Below are positions 38,628 to 50,609 of a stretch of DNA of 64,000 bases, piece after piece. The notes beneath the pieces are model-generated. The model searched no databases, was not told where the DNA came from, and saw nothing but the letters and a program-made list of their open reading frames with translations. Location of the stretch: NCBI GenBank assembly GCA_964527965.1, contig CAZGPH010000002.1, positions 97,072-161,071 on the forward strand, in the 5' to 3' direction. Within the stretch, counting starts at the first letter, position 1, and every line of letters begins with the position of its first letter. Source of the DNA: an uncultured Marinoscillum sp. Lineage in GTDB: Bacteria > Bacteroidota > Bacteroidia > Cytophagales > MED-G16. A program made the position numbers and the translations under genes.

Positions 38628-38804
38628 ATGAATATCACCTTTATTCATTTAATAGGAATAATATTTTTACTTTGGATGATATATTTTTCCTTAGGAGCAT
38701 TTGCTAATATGACAGAAAATAAATTTCTTCTAAACATTTTTAAATCATTTAAGTATATAATGGGAGTAATTATTCTATTTGCTCTTTACTTATATTTTAA
38801 ATGA
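38628..38804 (+). CDS. candidate 58-aa two-TM membrane peptide, translationally coupled to the TonB-dependent receptor
   Basis: This is the last 58 codons of track ORF 38451..38804 (MNITFIHLIGIIFLLWMIYFSLGAF...IMGVIILFALYLYFK). It has two hydrophobic helices and an ATGA stop/start overlap with the next gene. The upstream part of the track ORF overlaps the opposite-strand lipoprotein and is discarded. Confidence 0.35.
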   Translation: MNITFIHLIGIIFLLWMIYFSLGAFANMTENKFLLNIFKSFKYIMGVIILFALYLYFK

Positions 38805-41014
38805 GATTTATTTCAAAAATTATTTTTTTCATTTTTTTTTCTCAAGCCTTAATTGCTCAAAAATTAATTACTGGCAAGATTGTTGATAAAATATATCTTC
38901 ATCCTCTTGACAGTGTTGAAATTTCAGTTAATGGAAAAACTCTTTTCTCCAATAAAAAAGGTTTATTTTCTTTTATTTATAAAGAACTACCAGTAAAATT
39001 AATTATTAATGATTACAGATATTTTTATAAAGAATTAAATTTAAAAACCTCTGATTTTTTTGAAATTAAACTTACTAACAGAGGAGTAATTTTAAATGAA
39101 TTAATTGTGAAGACAGATCTGTTTTCTAAAAAGTTAAAAAATGTATCATTAGCAACATCCATATTAGATGATTTAGAGGGAAGAAAGAGTGAAGGACAAT
39201 TTATAATTAAATCATTAAATCAAATTCCAGGAATATACACTCATTCTGCAGGATATAATACAAATAGAATTACAATAAGAGGCATGGGATCAAGATCTCC
39301 CTACTCCACTAATAAGATTAAAGCATATTTAAATAATATTCCTCTTTCTAATGGTGTTGGAGAAACATCAATAGAAGATTTTGGCATTGATATTTTAGAT
39401 CAGGTTGAGATAAATAAAGGACCAAATTCAAGTATTTATGGTTCTGGTCTAGGCGGTAATATAATTTTAAAGACTTCTAAAAATCTCAATAAAAATATTA
39501 AGGTTAAATCAATTTATAAATCGTTTAATACATATCAGAATAGTATTTCTCTTTCTAAAACATTTAATCGTTTAAGCTTACTATTTAACTTTGAAAAAAT
39601 TAAAAGTGATGGATATAGAGATAATAATTCATATGAAAATAACAGAATTTTCACAAGTATCAATTATGAAATAAGTGATAATTACACCCTTGACTTTATT
39701 CATTTCTCTAATTCTGCAGATGCATTAATTCCTTCTTCTTTAAGTTTTGAAAATTTTATAAATAATCCATCAAGTGCAGCATTTTCATGGAGGAATGTCA
39801 AGGGAGGAGAAGATTATAGTAGATCAGTTTCAGGATTAACATTTAACTCAAAAAAAGACAAATACTCATCAAATACTACAATGTTTATTAAAACATTTTA
39901 TAATAACGAGAATAGACCATTTAATTACTTAATTGAAGATAGCAAAACATTTGGCATAAGACATTTTGGAAAATCTGTGTTAATTCCTTTCGACTTGAGT
40001 TACGGTCTTGAGTATTCATTTCAACAATATTTTTTTGATACTTGGGATGATTTTGGAAGTGTCAACCAATCACTATTATCTCGACAATCACAAGAGAGGA
40101 ATAACTATAATTTCTTTTTACAACTTGACAGATCATTTAAAAATTCATTTTTTACTTTTGGAATTGGATCTAATAAAATTATTTATAATTGGGTAAATGA
40201 AATTGAGTCAACTACATTAAGTTATAATACAAAAACAATTCTATCACCAAGGATTTCTTATAACCATACACTTAATAATAGTTCAATATTTGCAAATGTA
40301 AGTCATGGTTTTTCTCCTCCTAATATTGATGAGACTCTTGATGAAAATGGTATAGTAAATCCTAATATTAAACCTGAAACAGGATGGAATTACGAATTAG
40401 GGTTAATCGGAACTACTAGGGATAATAAACTGTCTTATAATTTTAACTTTTATTATATGGATATTAGGAATCTCCTCGTTGCGCAAAGGACAAGTTTTGA
40501 TACATTTACTGGAGTAAATGCCGGGAGAACATCACACCCAGGATTAGAAACAAATATAAATTTTCCATTATTTCAAAGTAAAAACCTAATAATTATATCA
40601 TCAAATAACTTTTCTAAATACTGGTATGTTTTTAAAGACTTCAATAATAATGGTAATGACTACTCTCAGAATAAATTAACTGGGGTACCAACCCACACAT
40701 CCTATTCAAAAATAAAAATTGATTTTAAAAATTACCTTGCACAAATTTCATTACAAAATATTGGAAAAATACCTATTAATGATTCTAATGAATTATTTTC
40801 TGGTTCTTATTCAGTAATTGATTTTAAAATATCAAAACTTTTATCTTTCAATAATTTTGATGTAAATATATCATCAGGTATCAATAATTTATTTGATAAA
40901 AAATATGCTTCAGGTATAGTAATAAACGCTAGAGGTTTTGGAGGTAGAGATCCAAGATATTATTATCCGGGTTTACCAAGAAATTATTTTATATCTTTAA
41001 ATCTTAGTATTTAA
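38801..41014 (+). CDS. TonB-dependent receptor (non-SusC size class)
   Basis: 737 aa. Signal peptide, CarboxypepD_reg-like N-terminus (ITGKIVDK...), plug motifs (ITIRGMGSRS, NKGPNSSIYGSGLGGNI) and a C-terminal barrel ending in an aromatic-rich strand. Confidence 0.85.
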   Translation: MRFISKIIFFIFFSQALIAQKLITGKIVDKIYLHPLDSVEISVNGKTLFSNKKGLFSFIYKELPVKLIINDYRYFYKELNLKTSDFFEIKLTNRGVILNELIVKTDLFSKKLKNVSLATSILDDLEGRKSEGQFIIKSLNQIPGIYTHSAGYNTNRITIRGMGSRSPYSTNKIKAYLNNIPLSNGVGETSIEDFGIDILDQVEINKGPNSSIYGSGLGGNIILKTSKNLNKNIKVKSIYKSFNTYQNSISLSKTFNRLSLLFNFEKIKSDGYRDNNSYENNRIFTSINYEISDNYTLDFIHFSNSADALIPSSLSFENFINNPSSAAFSWRNVKGGEDYSRSVSGLTFNSKKDKYSSNTTMFIKTFYNNENRPFNYLIEDSKTFGIRHFGKSVLIPFDLSYGLEYSFQQYFFDTWDDFGSVNQSLLSRQSQERNNYNFFLQLDRSFKNSFFTFGIGSNKIIYNWVNEIESTTLSYNTKTILSPRISYNHTLNNSSIFANVSHGFSPPNIDETLDENGIVNPNIKPETGWNYELGLIGTTRDNKLSYNFNFYYMDIRNLLVAQRTSFDTFTGVNAGRTSHPGLETNINFPLFQSKNLIIISSNNFSKYWYVFKDFNNNGNDYSQNKLTGVPTHTSYSKIKIDFKNYLAQISLQNIGKIPINDSNELFSGSYSVIDFKISKLLSFNNFDVNISSGINNLFDKKYASGIVINARGFGGRDPRYYYPGLPRNYFISLNLSI

Positions 41015-41017
41015 ATT

Positions 41018-41734
41018 ATGAAATTAGGAATTGATAAACTACAAAAATATGGAGTAGAGTCTCTAGTGATTTTATTTAGTATAATTCTATCTTTTTACAT
41101 AGAAGGTCAAAGAGACCTAGCTGAAAAAAATACTGATAAAAATAAGTTAATAACTGATCTAATTAATACCATAGATGAAGATCAAAAGCAATTAGATTAT
41201 ATTAAATCAGAAATGAATAAAACAGTTAAACTTATAAATGAGATACAATCAGACATAAATTCGCAAAATAATAATTTAGCTAAAATTGAGATAATTAATA
41301 AAATATCTGAAATTAAGGTTTCATATTCATTTTTTCCTCAAGAAGGTATATTTAACCAGTTAATTGCAACTGGTAGTTTCGAGTTGATAGAAAATGAAGA
41401 TCTTAAACTATTACTACTAAAAATATATAATCATCAAAACAATAGAAATTATGCAATATCAAACCTTATAGATATATTTTCTATAGAATTTTACAATACT
41501 GTTTATCAAAAATTTAGAATAGATATAAATGTTAATAATATGGAAGGTGAAATATATGGTATATCAGTAGTAAGCGATTTTAAGTTTAATAAAACATTCT
41601 ATTTATCAGATGAATTCTATGGATTTTTAACAAGAACAAAAACGTATGCAAATCTATACTCAAGATTATTAAATGATATTAGTGAAAATTATAAACAAGC
41701 TAGAATTTATTCAGAGTACGAAATAGAAAACTAA
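41018..41734 (+). CDS. hypothetical N-terminally anchored protein (DUF6090-like architecture)
   Basis: 238 aa. Has a single N-terminal TM segment (VESLVILFSIILSFYI), then a helical/coiled region. The family assignment is tentative and from memory. Confidence 0.45.
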   Translation: MKLGIDKLQKYGVESLVILFSIILSFYIEGQRDLAEKNTDKNKLITDLINTIDEDQKQLDYIKSEMNKTVKLINEIQSDINSQNNNLAKIEIINKISEIKVSYSFFPQEGIFNQLIATGSFELIENEDLKLLLLKIYNHQNNRNYAISNLIDIFSIEFYNTVYQKFRIDINVNNMEGEIYGISVVSDFKFNKTFYLSDEFYGFLTRTKTYANLYSRLLNDISENYKQARIYSEYEIEN

Positions 41735-42081
41735 TATAGAAGATGTTTTTTGTCTTTGTTTCTCCAACCAGCTTGAGATTTATATTCAACAAAAAAAATA
41801 TTAATATCTGCCTGAGATTTATATTCTTCAAAAAATATTTTTTTATCTGATTGAGATTCAAAGTCTATAAAATACCATAAACCATCATTTCCTTTAGCTT
41901 GAGATTTATAATTTACCTTAAACACTAATAGGTCTGCTTGACTTTTATAATTAACAACATAAACACTGAAATCAGACTGGGATTTATACTTTACACTAAA
42001 AATATTTTGTGAAAAGGTTTCTAAATTAGGATGTACAATAAAGAAAAAAATTAAAAAAATTAATTTATTCCTTATCATCAT
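41731..42081 (-). CDS. small secreted protein with six 13-residue YKSQAD repeats
   Basis: Start trimmed to the ATG at 42081/42078 (MMIRNKLIFLIFFFIV..., signal-like). Six copies of the motif [YF][KE]SQ[SA] at a 13/13/16/13/13-residue spacing. Ends ...SQAGWRNKDKKHLLY. Confidence 0.6.
   Translation of the reverse strand: MMIRNKLIFLIFFFIVHPNLETFSQNIFSVKYKSQSDFSVYVVNYKSQADLLVFKVNYKSQAKGNDGLWYFIDFESQSDKKIFFEEYKSQADINIFFVEYKSQAGWRNKDKKHLLY
41767..42000 (-). repeat. in-frame 39-bp-period coding repeat (YKSQAD units)
   Basis: Read directly from the translation: VKYKSQSDFSVYV / VNYKSQADLLVFK / VNYKSQAKGNDGLWYFI / DFESQSDKKIFFE / EYKSQADINIFFV / EYKSQAGW. Confidence 0.85.
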
Positions 42082-42319
42082 TCTTATTAAGTTCAGAAAT
42101 AATTGAAAAAGCCATAGTATTTGCTGATTTTGCATATTTATTAGCTTCAGCTGACTCTTTCTTAATTTCATCTAACTCAAAAAGTGAATATTCTAATTTT
42201 GAATTGATCTCGTTTAATTCATTCCTTGATTCGTGATTTTGATATGCTAAAATTATCAAACCAAAAAAAGTTAGATTTTGGAAACTCAAATAACCTCTAT
42301 ATCTTAAAAGATTTTTCAT
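42065..42319 (-). CDS. hypothetical small membrane-anchored coiled-coil protein
   Basis: ATG at 42319 (MKNLLRYRGYLSFQNLTFFGLIILAY..., one TM segment), then a helical acidic/basic tail. It overlaps the downstream repeat gene start by about 14-17 nt, which suggests coupling. Confidence 0.4.
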   Translation of the reverse strand: MKNLLRYRGYLSFQNLTFFGLIILAYQNHESRNELNEINSKLEYSLFELDEIKKESAEANKYAKSANTMAFSIISELNKNDDKE

Positions 42320-42371
42320 ATTAATTGTTTTATCCAAAAATAGAGATTTAAGATAAATAACTTAGAATAGA

Positions 42372-43148
42372 TTATTGTTTTTTATGTGGAGATGACTCAA
42401 GGTGTTCTACTATTGCATTTTTTGCAAAAAATAATGACAATAATAAGGTAATAATACCTCCGATCCATAATCCTGGAACAAAATCTAAATATAGAAAATA
42501 GTCATAAATTGCATGAAGTAGTATTGGCACTAGAATTGAAAGTGAAATAAATAAAAATTCTTTTTTCTTTCTAGATTTTGCAATACCTAAGTAATACCCC
42601 ATTATCACGGCAAAAACAAAATGAGCAGGGATTGCAGAAAGCATTCTAAATAATGCCAAAGAAGGATTACCCTGTAGTACAAATGTAAGATTTTCAGCAG
42701 TTGCAAAACCCATACCAACAAAAACAGAGTATACTATTCCATCAAATGGTTCGTCAAATGCCTTATTAGGATAAATAATTAAAATAACAACAATGAATTT
42801 TAAGAGCTCCTCAGTAATTGCAACTGTCAAGGCTTCGCCACCTACTTGAAGAAAAATGTTACTCATATTTATATATCCAAAGACAAATTCTAATATATCA
42901 ACATCAAGATGAAGATTAATAGCACCAAATATGAAACATAATGCTAGTAACCATAGAGGCTCTTGATCATCTTCGTCAAGATTATAAATAAAAATCATTA
43001 TAAAGATTCCTGGAGATATTGAAAGTGATACTAACAATAAGTCATACCAATCAAACTTATGAATTAATATAAGAGGATAGAATAAAACAAGATATAATAG
43101 GGTAATAATTGATGATCCATATATACTTGATTTAATTAATCTATTCAT
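42372..43148 (-). CDS. PrsW-family intramembrane metalloprotease
   Basis: 258 aa and polytopic. Motifs ITEELLKF (EExxK) and HAIYDY (HxxxD), as in B. subtilis PrsW. Starts 5 nt after the upstream gene's stop. Confidence 0.75.
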   Translation of the reverse strand: MNRLIKSSIYGSSIITLLYLVLFYPLILIHKFDWYDLLLVSLSISPGIFIMIFIYNLDEDDQEPLWLLALCFIFGAINLHLDVDILEFVFGYINMSNIFLQVGGEALTVAITEELLKFIVVILIIYPNKAFDEPFDGIVYSVFVGMGFATAENLTFVLQGNPSLALFRMLSAIPAHFVFAVIMGYYLGIAKSRKKKEFLFISLSILVPILLHAIYDYFLYLDFVPGLWIGGIITLLLSLFFAKNAIVEHLESSPHKKQ

Positions 43149-43153
43149 CTAAT

Positions 43154-46100
43154 CTAAAATTTAAGAGATATCATCCACTCATCATATGATTTATTATTCA
43201 TATTATTATCATATGCTCTAGCCCAACCCACAGATAATACTGCAGATAAATGAGAAAACATAACCAGTTTTGTATCAAGCTGAGCTCCAATATTAGAAAA
43301 GTTCTCTCTTATCTCTGGAGTATTTGGCAATGAGGATATAATATCATTAGAATATAATTTACTAGTAAAAATTGAAGGAGATATATTAGTAACAAAGAAA
43401 TTAAAAAATCCAAATTTTCTAAATCTAACAGGTGGTAAAACCAATTCTGCCATAACCTTATAAAAACTTTTAGCCAATAGTAATCTATCTGAATCAAAAC
43501 TGACTCCTGGAAAAGAAAATATACTCCTATACATTTTAGATGAATATCTATCAATATAATTATTACCAAAAGAAGCAAAACCAAATCTTGTGAATGGATT
43601 AATTTTATCACTAAAAGAATTTCCAAAAGAATTTCTAAACCATAAAGAAGTATGCTTTACAGGTAGCTGAATTCCTAAATCTAAATTTCCATAAGCTTTT
43701 GGATAGAAATTACCCTCAGAAATAGATGAAGAAACGGCAAGAGATGTATTTATACCCTTTTCTCCCTCAACGGCGCCAACTGACCTTTTAAGATGGGAGA
43801 AAGATAAAGATGCCTTAACATCATAAAATAAATTAGTATTAAATTCATCCTTACTAAAATTAATCTGTTGAAATTCTGGAGATTGATCTAAGCCATAGTA
43901 TCCAGTAAATCCAAGGTTTACATCTAATATACTAGGTGGGTCATAAATTATTGAATTTGAGTAATCAAAGCCAAAACTTACTCCTTTTCTAGATCTCTGA
44001 GTTGGTCCAAATAAATCATAAAAGTTAGCTTTATTATATGAAGCAAAAATATTATAATTTCCTGATAAAAAACCCCCTAATCTAACAGCAGAATAATTTA
44101 TAGATGAGTGAATTTGCTCATCTTTTTCTAGTTCTCGATCTCCTTCTATCAATCCATTTTTCCATTCATTTGGAGTGTATGATATTGAAAAATCAAGTTC
44201 TCTGAAACTAAATGGATCCTTAAAATTAAATCTATAGCCAACTCCAACATTATTTTTATATCCTACAACTATAGGATAAGCATAATTAAGTGTCATTTGT
44301 TTACTTGATTGGTAATAACCTTCTTTGGAATTAATCTCATTACCTTCAAATGTACTTTCAGTGGGAATTTCTGTTTTCCAACTTTTTAGAACTGGATGTT
44401 TCTGAACAGTTTTGTTACCTAAAAATTCAATTGATGATACATTATCTACTGGGGAATTTGGAACAGTAACAGGGGCAAAACCATCACTTGTATATCTAAA
44501 ACAGAACATTCTATCTGAATCAATTTGAATTGGCCTAAAATAACCAGTTATTGCATTAGACATTACTTCTATTTCAAGATTTTCAACATTAACTCTAAAA
44601 ATATTACTCACTCCTGAGTAAAAGGAAGAGCCAATTAAAAATTTACCATCATCAGTAAACTTAAAAGTTTGAGGTGAGGCTACCTCGAAATTAAAAACTT
44701 CATCAAATTTTATATTTTCTTTGTCAACATTATCTATGGAAGCTAAATCATAGATATTTAGGTACTGATTTCCAAAATAATCAGCAACTGCAGCACTAAG
44801 TTTTGTTCCATCAGGAGAAATATCTAAATCAAATATATCATGGCCATATGGTAAAGTATACTTCTGTTCCCAGACTGAATAATACTGATTTGGATTTTCA
44901 GAATTAAATTTTGGTATTCTTATCACAGTATTTATCCCATTCATATGCATTACTGCCCATAGAGACTGGTCTTTTTTATTATACGCTAAGTCTCCTGATC
45001 TAAAGTTTTTTTGAAGTAAAGTATTCTGTCCATTTTCTAAATTATAAGAATATAAATCTCTATTTGCACTATTATCTGTTGTATAAAATAAAAAATCATT
45101 ATTTTCATCATAGGCTAATGAAGTAACATTAAATAGCGCAGGACCCTTTATATCAGTTAATCTTTTTATTTTACCTGTAGAGATATCTAGAGATGCAAGA
45201 TGAGGAACCTTTCCAGGATAATTTACAGCAACATATATTTTATTTCTTTTTTTATCAAAGAATGCATGAGAAACACCTCCAAGAACCTTATCAGAAATCC
45301 TTTTATCTTCAGTTATTTCACTTTCGTTTAGACTTTTTATATTTTCATTTTGAAATTCTTTTTCAAACTGTATCCAGTTATCCCAAGCTTTTGAAATATT
45401 TAGATCAAATACATGCTTAAAGTTTGCTGCAAAACCTCTTTTAGTTCCATCTTTTCTTTTAATCCACTCCATTAACTTATTAGGGTCATATTCATGAGCG
45501 AGGTAGCTCATAAATCTAGTACCATAATAATATGAATTAGCTTTTGACATAAAGTCTGCTGTTGTACCTTCAGATTCTAAACCTTGGGCAGTATATATTC
45601 TAGAATTTTCAAGAACTCTAGTCCTAAAAAACATCTCATCATAATTACCTAAAGCATTACCTACTCCACCTGACATCCATGTCTCAACAAATACCGCTAT
45701 ACCCTCATGGAGCCATCTAGGAGAGTAATATCTTGGACTTGTCAGATAACTATAAAACATTGAAATAGGATGATCACTAGTATTTAGTACTTTACCGCCA
45801 AAAAATTTCTGATAAAATACATCTGAACTTGATGCGGCATCCAGTGCTGCTATATGAACAAGTTCATGATTCATAATTGCAAAAACTCTCTCTCCTGCTA
45901 CACTAGATTCGAATGCATAGTTCATGGGTGAAATACAAGTTGACACAAAATTAACAGGGATTGATGTTGCTCCTCCATTTCCATAGTCACCAAAATCTTG
46001 TATAAAAACTGAAATTTTTTCTCTTGGTTCATACTCAAATAAATCCCTATGAAAATTAAGTGCATTGTGTGCACATCTTACAGAGTGATTAAGAACATAT

Positions 46101-46219
46101 TTAGTCCCAATTCCAAAACTTACAACATTAAAATCATCGGTTTCAATTTTATTTAGTTGAGAAAAGGAGTTATTAAAAGAAAGTAAATAAATAATAGATA
46201 GTATTAGTATATTTTTCAT
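43154..46219 (-). CDS. 1021-aa exported protein: peptidase-MA-like (HExxH) domain + TolB/WD40-like beta-propeller + C-terminal beta-barrel
   Basis: Signal peptide MKNILILSIIYLLSFNNSFSQ. Gluzincin-like pair MNHELVHIA ... WLHEGIAVFVE. The middle has repeated propeller-like blades (LDISTGK, LYSYNLENGQ, LDISPDGTKL). The C-terminal 400 aa have alternating beta-strand patterns and end ...WMISLKF, with the terminal Phe typical of OM barrels. Confidence 0.7.
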   Translation of the reverse strand: MKNILILSIIYLLSFNNSFSQLNKIETDDFNVVSFGIGTKYVLNHSVRCAHNALNFHRDLFEYEPREKISVFIQDFGDYGNGGATSIPVNFVSTCISPMNYAFESSVAGERVFAIMNHELVHIAALDAASSSDVFYQKFFGGKVLNTSDHPISMFYSYLTSPRYYSPRWLHEGIAVFVETWMSGGVGNALGNYDEMFFRTRVLENSRIYTAQGLESEGTTADFMSKANSYYYGTRFMSYLAHEYDPNKLMEWIKRKDGTKRGFAANFKHVFDLNISKAWDNWIQFEKEFQNENIKSLNESEITEDKRISDKVLGGVSHAFFDKKRNKIYVAVNYPGKVPHLASLDISTGKIKRLTDIKGPALFNVTSLAYDENNDFLFYTTDNSANRDLYSYNLENGQNTLLQKNFRSGDLAYNKKDQSLWAVMHMNGINTVIRIPKFNSENPNQYYSVWEQKYTLPYGHDIFDLDISPDGTKLSAAVADYFGNQYLNIYDLASIDNVDKENIKFDEVFNFEVASPQTFKFTDDGKFLIGSSFYSGVSNIFRVNVENLEIEVMSNAITGYFRPIQIDSDRMFCFRYTSDGFAPVTVPNSPVDNVSSIEFLGNKTVQKHPVLKSWKTEIPTESTFEGNEINSKEGYYQSSKQMTLNYAYPIVVGYKNNVGVGYRFNFKDPFSFRELDFSISYTPNEWKNGLIEGDRELEKDEQIHSSINYSAVRLGGFLSGNYNIFASYNKANFYDLFGPTQRSRKGVSFGFDYSNSIIYDPPSILDVNLGFTGYYGLDQSPEFQQINFSKDEFNTNLFYDVKASLSFSHLKRSVGAVEGEKGINTSLAVSSSISEGNFYPKAYGNLDLGIQLPVKHTSLWFRNSFGNSFSDKINPFTRFGFASFGNNYIDRYSSKMYRSIFSFPGVSFDSDRLLLAKSFYKVMAELVLPPVRFRKFGFFNFFVTNISPSIFTSKLYSNDIISSLPNTPEIRENFSNIGAQLDTKLVMFSHLSAVLSVGWARAYDNNMNNKSYDEWMISLKF

Positions 46220-46242: not shown

Positions 46243-46281
46243 ACCAAAAAAAAAGGAGAAAATAAAATATTTTCCCCTTTT
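46243..46281 (-). terminator. rho-independent terminator downstream of the nonapeptide-repeat gene
   Basis: Arms AAAGGAGAAAAT (46252-46263) and ATTTTCCCCTTT (46269-46280) pair over 12 bp with 1 mismatch and a 5-nt loop. On the minus strand the hairpin is followed by a run of about 9 T (46243-46251). Confidence 0.6.
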
Positions 46282-46301
46282 CATTATACTTCAGAATTTA
46301 A

Positions 46302-47357
46302 TTACATATTCTTCTGAAATTTAGCTCCTTTCATGAACTTCTGAAAATCAGCTCCTTTCATAAATTTTTCAAAAGTTTGTCCTTTTGCAAATTTAGCATA
46401 AGCTGAACTTTTCATAAATTTCTGAAAATCGCCTCTCATCATGAATTTAGCAAAATCTTGATTTTTAGCAAATTTTTGAAAAGATGAACTCTTAGCAAAT
46501 TTTTCAAAATCAGCACCTTTCATAAACTTCTGAAGGTCAGCTCCTTTCATAAACTTCTGAAGTGTAGCATCTTTCATAAATTTTTGAAAGTCAACACCCT
46601 TCATGAACTTCTGAAAATCAGCTCCTTTCATAAACTTCTGAAAAGCTGCATCTTTTTGAAATTTCTGAAAATCTCCTCCATTTTTCATGAACTTCTGAAA
46701 TTGATCATTCTTCATGAACTTTTGAAACTCAGCACCTTTCATAAATTTCTGAAAATCAGAAATTTTATTAAAAGTTGCAGGATTAATAGATCCAACTAAA
46801 ATTGCTCCACCTTCACCACTAATTCCAGAATCGTTGTTCGCAGGATTTCCTCTCTGTCCGACAACATATGTCTCTTCAGAATTAGAGCTATTCATTGAAC
46901 GATTAGAGCTTAAATTTCCTCTATTACCACTCATATTACCTCTGGATTGAATAGCGTCATCTCCTAAGTTTCCTCCCTTGTCTATTCCTCCTCCATTATT
47001 AAATTCTAGGCTTCTATAAATATCACCTAATATTCCAATACCATCTTTGTTATCTAAAACTTTAACAAAATCTGGATCAGAAGCTAATTTTGAAAATTCA
47101 CCAGATGTGATCATCTTTTGAAAATCTGGGTTATTCAAAACATCTTGAATTTCTTCGCCATCTAGCTCTACGACTACATCATTCTTACTTACGTACTTAT
47201 CGGCTTTTTTAACACCTTTAATACCAGAACTTGTTCCTTGTGAAGGATCAACTACTCCGGATTGTACCATTAAATAAGAAACTGCGCCTAAAACTACAAC
47301 AACAGCTATCATTAAGAAATTCAATTTACCATGCACTTTATTTGTATGCTTACTCAT
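46302..47357 (-). CDS. N-terminally anchored protein with G/N/S-rich linker and C-terminal array of ~17 nonapeptide FQKFMKGAD repeats
   Basis: 351 aa. Basic N-terminus plus a TM segment (KLNFLMIAVVVVLGAVSYLMV). Three degenerate units at residues 78-104 (DFQKMITSG/EFSKLASDP/DFVKVLDNK). Low-complexity NGGGIDKGGN...NRSMNSSNS region. Residues 196-351 are almost entirely 9-aa units. Confidence 0.75.
   Translation of the reverse strand: MSKHTNKVHGKLNFLMIAVVVVLGAVSYLMVQSGVVDPSQGTSSGIKGVKKADKYVSKNDVVVELDGEEIQDVLNNPDFQKMITSGEFSKLASDPDFVKVLDNKDGIGILGDIYRSLEFNNGGGIDKGGNLGDDAIQSRGNMSGNRGNLSSNRSMNSSNSEETYVVGQRGNPANNDSGISGEGGAILVGSINPATFNKISDFQKFMKGAEFQKFMKNDQFQKFMKNGGDFQKFQKDAAFQKFMKGADFQKFMKGVDFQKFMKDATLQKFMKGADLQKFMKGADFEKFAKSSSFQKFAKNQDFAKFMMRGDFQKFMKSSAYAKFAKGQTFEKFMKGADFQKFMKGAKFQKNM
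46305..46772 (-). repeat. 27-bp-period in-frame tandem repeat array (about 17 units)
   Basis: The units are FQKFMKGAE, FQKFMKNDQ, FQKFMKNGGD, FQKFQKDAA, FQKFMKGAD, FQKFMKGVD, FQKFMKDAT, LQKFMKGAD (twice), FEKFAKSSS, FQKFAKNQD, FAKFMMRGD, FQKFMKSSA, YAKFAKGQT, FEKFMKGAD, FQKFMKGAK and a truncated FQKNM. A 35-nt stretch is identical at 46330-46364 and 46600-46634, offset by 270 = 10 x 27. Other units differ at synonymous sites. Confidence 0.9.
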
Positions 47358-47961: not shown

Positions 47962-48144
47962 CTAAGTCTTATCAGGAATTATTACCCAAGCAATAATATA
48001 AGTTAGAATTCCTCCTCCAAATAGAAAAAAAAGTGAGATAAATATTAATCTAAATAGAATAGGATCAATATTAAAGTATTCTCCAAGACCTTCACAAACA
48101 CCCCCAATAATTCCATTAAAACTATCTCTTTTAATTCTTCTCAT
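47962..48144 (-). CDS. PspC-domain small membrane protein
   Basis: 60 aa. GIIGGVCEGLGEYFNIDPILFRLIF followed by a TM helix, which is the PspC domain pattern. Confidence 0.75.
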   Translation of the reverse strand: MRRIKRDSFNGIIGGVCEGLGEYFNIDPILFRLIFISLFFLFGGGILTYIIAWVIIPDKT

Positions 48145-48787
48145 TCAATTTAAAGTTATATATATTATAACTAACTCTTAGTTGAGTTGATAAATTTCTA
48201 ATAGAAATTCCTTGACCTCCACCTGGACGAGTATTTAATAACCCATATGATAAAAAACCACCAATAGCTATTTTATTAAAATTATAATTTAGTCCAAATT
48301 GTAATCCTAAGTCTAAAGGTTTTAATGTATCTGGAGGTTCATTATTTAAATTATTTCCTATTCTTCCAAAAACTTTATTCTTAGTTATGTTATTAATGAG
48401 ATATTCTCTCATAGCAAAACCAAAATATGACCCTAATTCTATAGATAGGTTTTCAGATGAAATAATCTTAGCACGAAAAGGCATGGTAATATAATTAGAG
48501 TAAGACCTCACTCTTACCCCAGATTGATTATTGGTATACCCCTTTACTGAATAATTTAATTCTGTAACTAAAAAAATATCATCTTCAATTAAATATTCAA
48601 CTTTAAGTCCATGAAATTCTGCTGGAAGAAAACCTTTGCCGTAATTGAAATCATCAGAAGAATTACTGGCAAGTATCGTAGAAAAATTAATTCCAGAGTG
48701 TAACCCAAGCTTTAATTTATTAGGAAATACATTAAAGGAAAAAAAAATTAAAACTAAAGCAGAATAAAATTTTATTTTTGGTATCAC
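48131..48787 (-). CDS. small outer-membrane beta-barrel (OmpA_membrane/PorT-like porin family) protein
   Basis: 218 aa. Signal peptide, alternating hydrophobic beta-strand pattern and G/N/Y-rich turns. Confidence 0.6.
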   Translation of the reverse strand: MIPKIKFYSALVLIFFSFNVFPNKLKLGLHSGINFSTILASNSSDDFNYGKGFLPAEFHGLKVEYLIEDDIFLVTELNYSVKGYTNNQSGVRVRSYSNYITMPFRAKIISSENLSIELGSYFGFAMREYLINNITKNKVFGRIGNNLNNEPPDTLKPLDLGLQFGLNYNFNKIAIGGFLSYGLLNTRPGGGQGISIRNLSTQLRVSYNIYNFKLNEKN

Positions 48788-48826: not shown

Positions 48827-49588
48827 ATGTTGTCAGTAAAAAGATTAAATCTTGACTCATCTTGGCATGTAAGTTATAATGGGACTAATTTTATTGTTGA
48901 CCCTTGGTTAATTGGTTCTGAAATAGATGGCTTCAAATGGTTAAATGAACAATGGCACATAAAAGAACCCGTTAAAATTACTGAATTACCTGATTATAAT
49001 TTTATTCTTATATCTCAAAGTTATGAAGACCATTGCCACATAAAAACATTAAAAAAAATATCAGAAAACAAAACACTAATTGCTACTGAAAAAGCCTACA
49101 ATAAATTAAAAAAAGAATTCCCAAAACGTAAAATAATTCTATTAGAAGATAATAAGGTTATATCTCACGAAGGCTTAAATTTTATATCACTAAGACCAAA
49201 TAAAATTCTTGATCCAGTATATTATTCGGTAGTAATAGAAAATAATAATGAAGCAATATTTTATGCGCCTCATGGATTCACCTTGAACAACCAACAGCTT
49301 GATTTAGTTAATAAGAATAAGATTAAGCTTCTTATTACTACTTTCACAGAATTTGAGATTCCAAAAATAATGGGAGGAAAAGTTAATCCGGGAATGGAAA
49401 ATGTTTATGAGCTGTACAATCAAATAAAACCTGTAAATACAATCAATACCCATGATGAAGAAAAAAAAGCAAAGGGGCTTGTCTCATCTCTTGCAAAAAT
49501 AAAATATGCAGACTTTGATAAAATTGAGTCCAAAAATTCAATTAATTTTATAAGAATTGATAATTACTCAAAAAAAATAATCACGTGA
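48827..49588 (+). CDS. MBL-fold metallo-hydrolase-like protein
   Basis: 253 aa. ILISQSYEDHCH resembles a variant HxHxDH motif of the MBL fold, with later HG and NTHD histidines. Low specificity. Confidence 0.6.
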   Translation: MLSVKRLNLDSSWHVSYNGTNFIVDPWLIGSEIDGFKWLNEQWHIKEPVKITELPDYNFILISQSYEDHCHIKTLKKISENKTLIATEKAYNKLKKEFPKRKIILLEDNKVISHEGLNFISLRPNKILDPVYYSVVIENNNEAIFYAPHGFTLNNQQLDLVNKNKIKLLITTFTEFEIPKIMGGKVNPGMENVYELYNQIKPVNTINTHDEEKKAKGLVSSLAKIKYADFDKIESKNSINFIRIDNYSKKIIT

Positions 49589-49980
49589 TTTTTAATCTTA
49601 TAATATCTCTCATACTAATAAATATCAATGAAGATATTGAAAAAGAAAACTTAGTAGGTAACTGGGAAAGAGTTTGTTTAGAGAATGAAGCATTAGGTTT
49701 TAAAATTTCTCATTGTAATTTCTTTGGAGATAGAGAAATGTTTATAAATGAATGGAACTATATAGAGATGACTTTTAAAAATGGTGAAAGAAGGTTTTAT
49801 GATTACAGTCTTGATGGTGACAAATTAAAAATATTTTATAAGTATAACGAGGAAATTGAAACTAATATCATAATAGATGGTGATACTTTAATAATTGAAT
49901 CTAAAGAAATATATAATGAGATGATGAATAGAAAATTTGAAGCGGAATATAATAGAGTATATTTTGTAAGAGATAATTAA
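49585..49980 (+). CDS. small lipocalin-like protein, hypothetical
   Basis: 131 aa. GTG start overlapping the upstream stop (GTGA). LVGNWERV ... IIDGDTLIIES pattern as in 47518..47835. Confidence 0.45.
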   Translation: MIFNLIISLILININEDIEKENLVGNWERVCLENEALGFKISHCNFFGDREMFINEWNYIEMTFKNGERRFYDYSLDGDKLKIFYKYNEEIETNIIIDGDTLIIESKEIYNEMMNRKFEAEYNRVYFVRDN

Positions 49981-50609
49981 ATTATTAGATACATCATCAG
50001 AAAATGACAAAAGGCTCCTAATAAAACAAAAACATGCCAAATCACATGATTAAACTTCATATTATCCATAGAATAAAATATAGTTCCAATTGTATACATA
50101 AACCCTCCAATAACCATTAGAGTTATAGCTTTTTCAGAAAAAGAGTTTAATACTGCATCAAAATCAATTACTATCAGCCACCCCATAAATAAATATATAA
50201 TTAAAGTTGCCCTTTCAAAATATTTAAAAAAAAATATTTTATGTATAATACCTATTATAGCAATTACCCAAATAATTATTAATATTTCATTACCCATACT
50301 ATACCCTAATTTTAAAATTAAAGGAGGAGTGTAAGATCCTGCAATTAGAAAATAAATACTTACATGATCCATTTTTTGTAAAAAGTAGGAATGTTTTGTG
50401 TCAATAAAATAATGATAGAGGGTAGATGAACCAAACATAAACATAAGAGAAAAACCATATATAATAGATGAAAATAATTTTTCATCTGAGGAATAGATTA
50501 AAGACTTATTAATTAAAAAAAAAGTTCCTAATACACTTAGCAATAAACCAAATCCATGAGTTTTATAATTTAACTTTTTCTCAAAATTTGATTCTATTCT
50601 AACACCCAA
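49977..50609 (-). CDS. hemolysin III / PAQR-family membrane protein
   Basis: 210 aa with 7 TM segments. STLYH, MDHVSIYFLIAGSYTP and HVIWHVFVLLGAFCHF motifs of the Hly-III family. Confidence 0.85.
   Translation of the reverse strand: MGVRIESNFEKKLNYKTHGFGLLLSVLGTFFLINKSLIYSSDEKLFSSIIYGFSLMFMFGSSTLYHYFIDTKHSYFLQKMDHVSIYFLIAGSYTPPLILKLGYSMGNEILIIIWVIAIIGIIHKIFFFKYFERATLIIYLFMGWLIVIDFDAVLNSFSEKAITLMVIGGFMYTIGTIFYSMDNMKFNHVIWHVFVLLGAFCHFLMMYLII

Follow-up and report, generated by a model that had tools for sequence, protein, structure and literature searches.

The window considered here is a 64-kb stretch of DNA from an uncultured Marinoscillum-like bacterium, with a G+C content of about 28%; its open reading frame (ORF) boundaries are mechanical calls. 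The region under study is 99% identical at the protein level to a marine metagenome-assembled genome labelled Flammeovirgaceae bacterium NAT912, and its nearest relatives are Marinoscillum-like Cytophagales. On the minus strand, the ORF list places three consecutive genes there, encoding a 351-residue membrane protein with nonapeptide repeats (46302-47357), a protein of 1021 residues, here called the big protein (43154-46219), and a PrsW-family protease of 258 residues (42372-43148), the last also recognised by PF13367. Only 5 nt separate the stop codon of the big gene from the start of prsW. A preliminary description of the locus had joined the big protein and PrsW with two small downstream genes into one trans-envelope proteolysis operon and had overlooked the repeat gene upstream. 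Synteny supports another grouping: the conserved unit consists of three genes, those for the repeat protein, the big protein and PrsW.

Distribution of the three-gene unit

The synteny set comprised 80 genomic loci encoding relatives of the big protein. Among the 76 loci whose downstream sequence is long enough to judge, at least 70 encode PrsW in the next same-strand gene after the big gene, so that the co-occurrence of the two proteins, proposed from the window, is borne out in several phyla; in total, the pairing spans at least eight phylum-level groups. Synteny of all three genes is seen in Bacteroidota, Ignavibacteria, Balneolales, Rhodothermaceae, Calditrichia, KSB1, Zixibacteria and Aminicenantes, and the same trio is found in the complete genome of a cultured isolate, Flavobacteriaceae bacterium MAR_2010_188. 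Directly upstream of the big gene, 71 loci encode a transmembrane (TM) protein with a 9- or 18-residue periodicity that is either homologous or analogous to the repeat protein of the window. The linkage with PrsW holds down to about 34-36% identity of the big protein. At this distance, the upstream partner keeps its TM segment and a G.IGKA.K motif and is without repeats.

The big protein belongs to a large family. More than 3,000 homologues, all labelled hypothetical, were returned by one search, and 2,093 relatives were obtained as 50%-identity clusters at E <= 1e-3. The window protein shares 51-84% identity with its relatives among the Bacteroidota and 40-45% with those of other phyla. A conservation of 40-55% identity over 1,000 residues between phyla is unusual.

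Architecture of the three proteins

The big protein begins with what looks like a Sec signal peptide, as read from the sequence (residues 1-20, MKNILILSIIYLLSFNNSFS; 46160-46219, minus strand). The next residue, Gln21, is invariant in the alignment of its homologues. In Bacteroidota, signal peptidase I tends to cut before a glutamine, which then occupies position +1 of exported proteins (the "Q-rule"), and Gln21 may be read in this way. In agreement with this habit, a glutamine follows the signal-peptide-like segment both in the big protein (SFS-Q21, 46157-46159) and in the DUF6150 protein encoded further downstream (TFS-Q, 42004-42006).

An N-terminal alpha/beta domain (residues ~21-300; 45320-46159, minus strand) was delimited by its motifs and an AlphaFold2 (AF2) model, and carries a putative gluzincin-type zinc site. 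This site consists of HELVH at residues 118-122 (45854-45868) and of E172 (45704-45706), the candidate third ligand, within WLHEGIA, both on the minus strand. H118, E119, H122, E172 and G173 are invariant in all 81 family members compared, which come from many phyla. The full-length AF2 model (pLDDT 78.6, pTM 0.78) has three parts and places HExxH on a helix (109-127) and E172 on another (168-182) that comes after a small beta-sheet. As modelled, this corresponds to the hallmark of the MA clan (gluzincins), an HExxH on one helix with a downstream glutamate ligand on the following one. Pfam Peptidase_MA_2 matched the isolated domain with E 8.7e-5 and 22.8 bits, below its cutoff of 32.4. Sub-threshold matches to MA-clan families recur among the relatives, with Peptidase_MA_2 in 5 and BSP in 6 of 14 members, and the HExxH families of NCBIfam reached only E ~0.02 against members of the family. 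A metallopeptidase fold, as assumed in the preliminary description, is suggested by the helix-borne HExxH and glutamate; the matches at family level are sub-threshold.

The central part (residues ~301-595; 44435-45319, minus strand) is predicted to be a beta-propeller of the TolB/tricorn type, as indicated by Foldseek and weak Pfam matches. TolB chains predominate among the best PDB matches of the full model (7mx5_B, E 9.8e-9; TM-scores to the target of 0.45-0.52), and the best superpositions have an rmsd of ~3 Å over ~245 columns. S9 peptidases are also among these matches. Pfam contributes a weak Lactonase/WD40 match, and relatives of the big protein are annotated with PF26550 (Tricorn_2nd).

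The propeller dominated the Foldseek results of the full model, and for this reason the C-terminal part was modelled separately. These 426 residues (596-1021; 43154-44434, minus strand) comprise a linker and a predicted Omp85-type barrel, delimited by AF2 and Foldseek, and end in ...MISLKF. The separate model has about 16 long strands and a pLDDT of 67, which is of moderate confidence. Its top 50 PDB matches are almost all BamA barrels, together with FhaC; the best is 8qn4_A (E 1.1e-7), and the BamA matches range from E 1e-7 to 6e-5 with TM-scores of 0.4-0.5. The domain thus models as a 16-stranded barrel of the BamA/TpsB fold of the Omp85 superfamily. Pfam Omp85_2 (PF19143) weakly matched 6 of 13 members (best E 2.6e-4) and left the C-domain of the window protein unmatched. 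The last residue is Phe in the big protein and F, L, I or V in its relatives. No POTRA domain was matched by Pfam, and residues 596-640 of the linker show only two short helices and one strand in the AF2 model. Omp85 subfamilies without POTRA domains are known (PMC4104836).

The whole protein has no significant match in Pfam, NCBIfam (sub-threshold propeller matches only) or the sequences of the PDB, and PDB searches with profiles of the N-domain and of the C-domain gave nothing useful. Because whole-protein scans remained sub-threshold, the domain identities emerged only after splitting the protein and scanning many members of the family. The three-part build read from the window alone is borne out in this way, from the invariant HExxH and glutamate through the TolB-like propeller to an Omp85-like barrel with terminal Phe and BamA as its best structural match. 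The location requires a correction. The protease had been described as embedded in the outer membrane; by analogy with the topology of Omp85 proteins, the peptidase and the propeller would hang from the barrel into the periplasm.

The opposite orientation would make the big protein a type Vd-like autotransporter, in which the barrel carries the peptidase and propeller out to the cell surface for use as a nutritional or surface protease, comparable to the patatin domain of PlpD. An Omp85 barrel preceded by a non-POTRA enzyme domain does resemble PlpD-type proteins (PMC4104836), and FhaC is among the fold matches of the barrel. However, PlpD has a POTRA domain and none is seen here, a folded propeller of at least six blades is an unlikely passenger, and the partners that are conserved reside in the inner membrane with portions in the periplasm, joined by sigma control in the cytoplasm. 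Export to the surface is thus very improbable.

The identity of the second gene as a prsW-family gene has been confirmed. PF13367 covers residues 63-224 of its product with E 3.9e-34 and 118.3 bits (cutoff 23.5), and the family motifs are intact. The NCBIfam equivalog model for PrsW (NF033739) gives 140.8 bits, under its cutoff of 225. No variation at E113, E114, K117, F148, E152, N153, H176 and H212 occurs among the 72 PrsW genes that adjoin a big gene. EExxK, FxxxE-N and the two histidines are what we take to be the catalytic motifs of PrsW. The length of the protein differs between lineages, with 335-350 residues outside the Bacteroidia (e.g., L041:10953-11975) versus 227-259 within them. 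The additional length is a C-terminal extension of ~90 residues without a family match.

The product of the upstream gene is a type II membrane protein with a short basic N-tail and one TM segment (~residues 14-34), followed by the conserved juxtamembrane motif GTSSGIKGVKKADKY. Its cytoplasmic tail has only ~13 residues and contains no anti-sigma domain. Three nonapeptide units (residues 77-105) precede about 17 tandem units of the form x-D-F-Q-K-F-M-K-G, giving a total of ~20, and a low-complexity insert rich in G, N and S (~residues 106-196) splits the array. The homologue of the cultured isolate (L081:5122-5937) does not have this insert. On the DNA level, the array appears as a 27-nt tandem repeat with 16.5 copies (46312-46759) and a unit spacing of 9 residues. 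The family-wide consensus of the nonapeptide is x-D/A-F-x-x-L/M-M/L-K/A-x and that of the juxtamembrane motif is G-T-I-G-G-x-K-A-x-K-Y; the number of repeats varies widely across homologues, from ~15 to 45. The repeat protein has no family in Pfam or NCBIfam. Pfam matches on the repeat proteins, such as STI1/HOP DP, ubiquilin, NblA, Tad8 and others, included no significant stretch and were dismissed as compositional artefacts of amphipathic repeats rich in Met and Phe.

These features could also describe a periplasm-spanning tether or ruler of the TolA/TonB kind that docks on the TolB-like propeller and links both membranes, with the proteases serving only to remodel or release it. A single TM segment with the N-terminus inside and a long, regular and probably helical array of 150-400 residues would suit such a role, as would the propeller, since the binding partners of TolB are either membrane-anchored or extend from a membrane. 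The wide variation in repeat number speaks against a tether, as does the distant relative with a non-repeat helical partner. Moreover, two intact proteases with invariant sites point to proteolysis as the central activity, which makes a mainly mechanical role improbable.

The repeat gene and the big gene are separated by an 82-nt spacer, in which a sequence scan detected a terminator-like stem-loop of 15 pairs with a T-run (46250-46282, minus strand). Most related loci, across phyla, have a strong hairpin with a T-run in the corresponding place, and their stem sequences differ. This suggests a conserved terminator or attenuator between an abundantly expressed repeat gene and the peptidase-PrsW pair. 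The hairpin may adjust how much repeat protein is made relative to the two proteases. A scan for sigma-70-type promoters was uninformative, with fewer matches than in shuffled sequence; Bacteroidota use other promoters.

Downstream of prsW lie the two small genes of the preliminary description. The first is an ORF of 90 codons with a TTG start (42065-42337, minus strand) and an ATG 18 nt further in, at 42319, so that its distance from prsW is 34 or 52 nt. The second encodes a DUF6150 protein (PF19647) of 146 residues as the longest ORF (41731-42171, minus strand); its likely start is Met31 or Met32 (42081 or 42078), just ahead of the signal-peptide-like segment, which yields an overlap of 14-17 nt with the 90-codon ORF. 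With these alternative starts, the coordinates and spacings reported for the four minus-strand genes agree with the ORF list. For the 90-residue product, which the preliminary description had called a TM coiled-coil protein, a hydrophobic segment and a helical tail can be read from the sequence, and no Pfam or NCBIfam family matched it. The characterisation of the last product as a small secreted protein with YKSQAD repeats holds, with a PF19647 match of E 1.7e-25 and six YKSQAD-type repeats. These repeats are encoded by a 39-nt tandem repeat in the DNA (41774-41858; 2.2 copies, 82% matches).

The view that the big gene, prsW and these two genes constitute one trans-envelope proteolysis system draws on their common strand, their tight spacing, the lack of a terminator-like site found between the four genes and their co-linearity in the closest relatives (L001-L007 and L063). 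Yet the gene for the 90-residue protein occurs in 8 and the DUF6150 gene in 7 of the 80 loci, all from close relatives, and other Bacteroidia have unrelated genes after prsW, while the conserved third partner lies upstream instead. The four-gene unit has accordingly failed the comparison for two of its members and is largely refuted by synteny; as an explanation of the locus, it is now improbable. The two small genes have been ruled out as parts of the conserved system and are lineage-specific local passengers.

In the wider neighbourhood, on the plus strand, a TonB-dependent receptor (737 residues) is followed after 4 nt by a coiled-coil-like protein of 238 residues (38801-41734), and the stop codons of the latter gene and of the DUF6150 gene overlap convergently by 4 nt. 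Two further minus-strand genes (47962-48787), conserved in close relatives only, lie some 600 nt upstream of the repeat gene; one encodes a PspC-domain protein of 60 residues (PF04024, E 1e-22) and overlaps the final part of the other, which encodes an outer-membrane beta-barrel protein of 218 residues (PF13568). A metallo-beta-lactamase-fold protein (253 residues, plus strand) and a membrane protein of the haemolysin-III family (210 residues, minus strand) are encoded at 48827-50609. They are ordinary neighbours without an apparent tie to the trio.

Association with sigma and anti-sigma factors

Outside the Bacteroidia, the trio has additional company. A sigma factor gene of the extracytoplasmic function (ECF) type is found on the same strand, 1.3-3.2 kb upstream and just before the trio, in 28 of 41 such loci; in the remaining 13, the upstream sequence (at most ~2.4 kb) is too short to tell. 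The sigma factor of the cluster is AlgU/SigW/RpoE-like. Among the Bacteroidota, only one locus (L020) has such a gene. In this locus, at L020:6011-7848, the repeat protein has a shortened N-domain of ~50 residues that is unrecognised by the anti-sigma-domain profile, and the locus may represent an intermediate in the loss of that domain. In the 34%-identical relative L085 (1896-8533), which has PrsW and a repeat-less TM partner, a histidine kinase gene takes the usual position of the sigma factor gene.

The clusters with sigma factors come in two arrangements. In the fused one, a cytoplasmic N-domain of ~100 residues, the TM segment, the GTIGG.KA.KY motif and the repeats reside in a single protein. 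In the split one, the sigma gene is followed by a gene for a protein of ~250 residues, composed of the N-domain, a TM segment, the GTIG motif and a small beta-domain, and then by one for a TM-repeat protein with a short tail. The N-domains of both forms are homologous (E 1e-12 to 1e-17), and anti-sigma and repeat proteins have the GTIG-type juxtamembrane motif in common. Pfam scans of the N-domains, run on single sequences and member by member, gave nothing; only a profile compared with the PDB revealed their relationship. The profile of the split ~250-residue proteins matched RsiW of B. subtilis (5wuq_C) with E 1.7e-10, residues 5-76 aligning with residues 6-77. RsiW is the established substrate of PrsW.

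The signalling cascade across the envelope that had been suggested for this locus is thus supported in part. An ECF sigma factor and an RsiW-like domain stand beside the protease pair outside the Bacteroidia, while the window has neither.

This distribution bears on a further explanation, in which the big protein would be an assembly or quality-control factor for outer-membrane proteins. An Omp85 barrel, a BamB/TolB-like propeller and a BepA-like zinc protease would cooperate in degrading stalled or misfolded outer-membrane proteins, and PrsW and the repeat protein would be neighbours with envelope-housekeeping tasks. BepA sets a precedent as a periplasmic zinc protease that works at an Omp85 machine, the BAM complex. 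The barrel is BamA-like, the lineage of the window retains the trio without a sigma or anti-sigma gene, and a role like that of a BamA-BamB fusion has been suggested for "WD40-like Omp85" proteins by Heinz and Lithgow (PMC4104836). Such a function would leave unexplained why an RsiW-like domain is fused to the repeat protein and why every locus outside the Bacteroidia with enough upstream sequence has an ECF sigma gene ahead of the cluster. The lack of a visible POTRA domain and the tight 5-nt coupling to prsW, which is conserved across phyla, also argue against it. Pure quality control is therefore unlikely, even if less so than the tether.

Proposed mechanism and comparison with known systems

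The favoured reading, to which we assign somewhat better than even chances, is that the trio is an envelope module in which two proteases share the repeat protein as their substrate or regulator and which ancestrally controlled an ECF sigma factor. It builds on gene content, synteny, modelled folds and the conservation of catalytic motifs. The zinc peptidase at the outer membrane, gated by its propeller, would work on the extended periplasmic repeat array, and would either license PrsW or trim the array after PrsW has acted. The cut by PrsW would fall beside the membrane, on or close to the conserved juxtamembrane motif, mirroring the site-1 cut of RsiW in B. subtilis. In other phyla of the Fibrobacteres-Chlorobi-Bacteroidetes (FCB) group, this proteolysis would control the ECF sigma factor, which would represent the ancestral role. 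Since the locus of the present Cytophagales lineage has neither the sigma gene nor the anti-sigma domain, two outputs are conceivable for it: the trio may feed an unlinked regulator, or it may act as a sigma-independent device for envelope processing or quality control. Which protease cuts what, in which order and on which signal, we infer from the sigma-W/RsiW/PrsW analogy and from how the domains are fused or split.

A more specific version can be advanced tentatively, with clearly lower confidence. The peptidase would progressively trim the nonapeptide array like a "fuse" and thereby license the site-1 cut by PrsW that frees the ECF sigma factor, a signalling device used throughout the FCB group and re-wired to sigma independence in the Bacteroidia. 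If true, this would give "WD40-like Omp85" proteins their first functional assignment and diderm bacteria their first PrsW pathway.

Several observations weigh against the favoured reading. No ECF sigma factor is encoded within the window and no anti-sigma gene nearby, and for this reason the signalling output of this organism is extrapolated from other phyla. The N-domain of the big protein is assigned as a gluzincin-like zinc peptidase from its motifs and from weak, sub-threshold Pfam matches. By its sequence, the second gene encodes a member of the PrsW family, a polytopic inner-membrane protease, which need not be an orthologue of the Bacillus enzyme. Instead of being a substrate, the repeat array might serve as a structural tether or as a binding platform. 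Given the hairpin in front of the big gene, the repeat gene and the peptidase-PrsW pair may be separate transcripts. Finally, two full-length relatives with 26-29% identity (L082 and L083), which have the same length as the big protein and presumably the same architecture, lack a PrsW neighbour. Since the linkage persists to ~34-36% identity but is gone at 26-29%, the pairing of the big protein with PrsW marks one orthologous subfamily among several paralogues with different contexts.

The preliminary description did not recognise a described system in this locus, and this is correct for the function and not for the architecture. Heinz and Lithgow (2014) catalogued a "WD40-like Omp85" subfamily with a TolB-like propeller N-terminal to an Omp85 barrel (PMC4104836). 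Their Table S3 lists an aminopeptidase-like region with Phyre2 matches to 1z5h, 4kxd, 4ar1 and 3qnf at ~99%, and they proposed a role resembling a BamA-BamB fusion; PrsW, sigma or anti-sigma factors and repeat proteins go unmentioned (PMC4104836). The window protein is alike in architecture and may belong to their cluster; it reaches neither PF01103 nor PF07676, the families that define many of the catalogued members. The UniProt accessions in that catalogue presumably belong to Ignavibacterium, Melioribacter, Rhodothermus, Caldithrix, Microscilla and Marivirga. Literature searches combining PrsW with Bacteroidota, FCB taxa, Omp85 and ECF classification yielded no linking paper and no description that ties the peptidase-propeller-Omp85 architecture to PrsW, an anti-sigma factor or a repeat protein; subscription literature lay mostly outside their coverage, so that this absence is not proof. 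The trio looks like an uncharacterised pathway of envelope signalling or processing, with regulated envelope proteolysis organised around a catalogued Omp85 architecture.

No function is known for Omp85 proteins whose N-terminal domains are other than POTRA, and the genomic context now offers a concrete lead. It suggests a partnership of this family with PrsW in acting on a single-pass repeat protein, ancestrally under or over an ECF sigma/RsiW-like pair. If true, this would also explain a striking class of nonapeptide-repeat membrane proteins. For an abundant marine lineage of the Cytophagales, a conserved envelope module has been identified.

Single features of the module recall well-studied enzymes. 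Like tricorn and prolyl-oligopeptidase, the big protein combines a peptidase with a beta-propeller, which in those enzymes restricts access to unfolded peptides. By analogy, the propeller of the big protein may have a similar gating function. Tricorn and prolyl-oligopeptidase are serine enzymes and not membrane-anchored, in contrast to the predicted zinc HExxH site and barrel found here. In the sigma-E pathway of E. coli (DegS, RseA, RseB and RseP), envelope proteases likewise turn an envelope condition into the destruction of a single-pass anti-sigma factor. The enzymes of comparison are DegS of family S1 and, at the BAM complex, BepA of family M48, whereas the present module has an MA-clan-like domain and PrsW. 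Furthermore, its peptidase is fused to an Omp85 barrel of its own and has no PDZ or TPR domains.

The closest parallel is the sigma-W system of B. subtilis, in which RsiW is cleaved by PrsW and then by RasP. Common to both are a PrsW-family protease with all family motifs and a presumed substrate that is a single-pass protein with its N-terminus inside and its C-terminus outside; in the sister phyla, the ECF sigma factor of the cluster is AlgU/SigW/RpoE-like and the anti-sigma N-domain finds its match in RsiW itself. The prsW gene of B. subtilis is not known to be linked to sigW-rsiW. The window differs in having neither a sigma gene nor an anti-sigma domain and in a PrsW that scores under the equivalog cutoff. 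The module further differs in its extracytoplasmic nonapeptide-repeat array, which is either fused to the anti-sigma domain or located on a separate protein, and in its diderm envelope, with a predicted Omp85-anchored zinc peptidase of the outer membrane that is invariably encoded directly before PrsW. If the favoured reading is correct, it would carry the PrsW paradigm of Bacillus into diderm bacteria and add an outer-membrane-anchored protease to regulated proteolysis.

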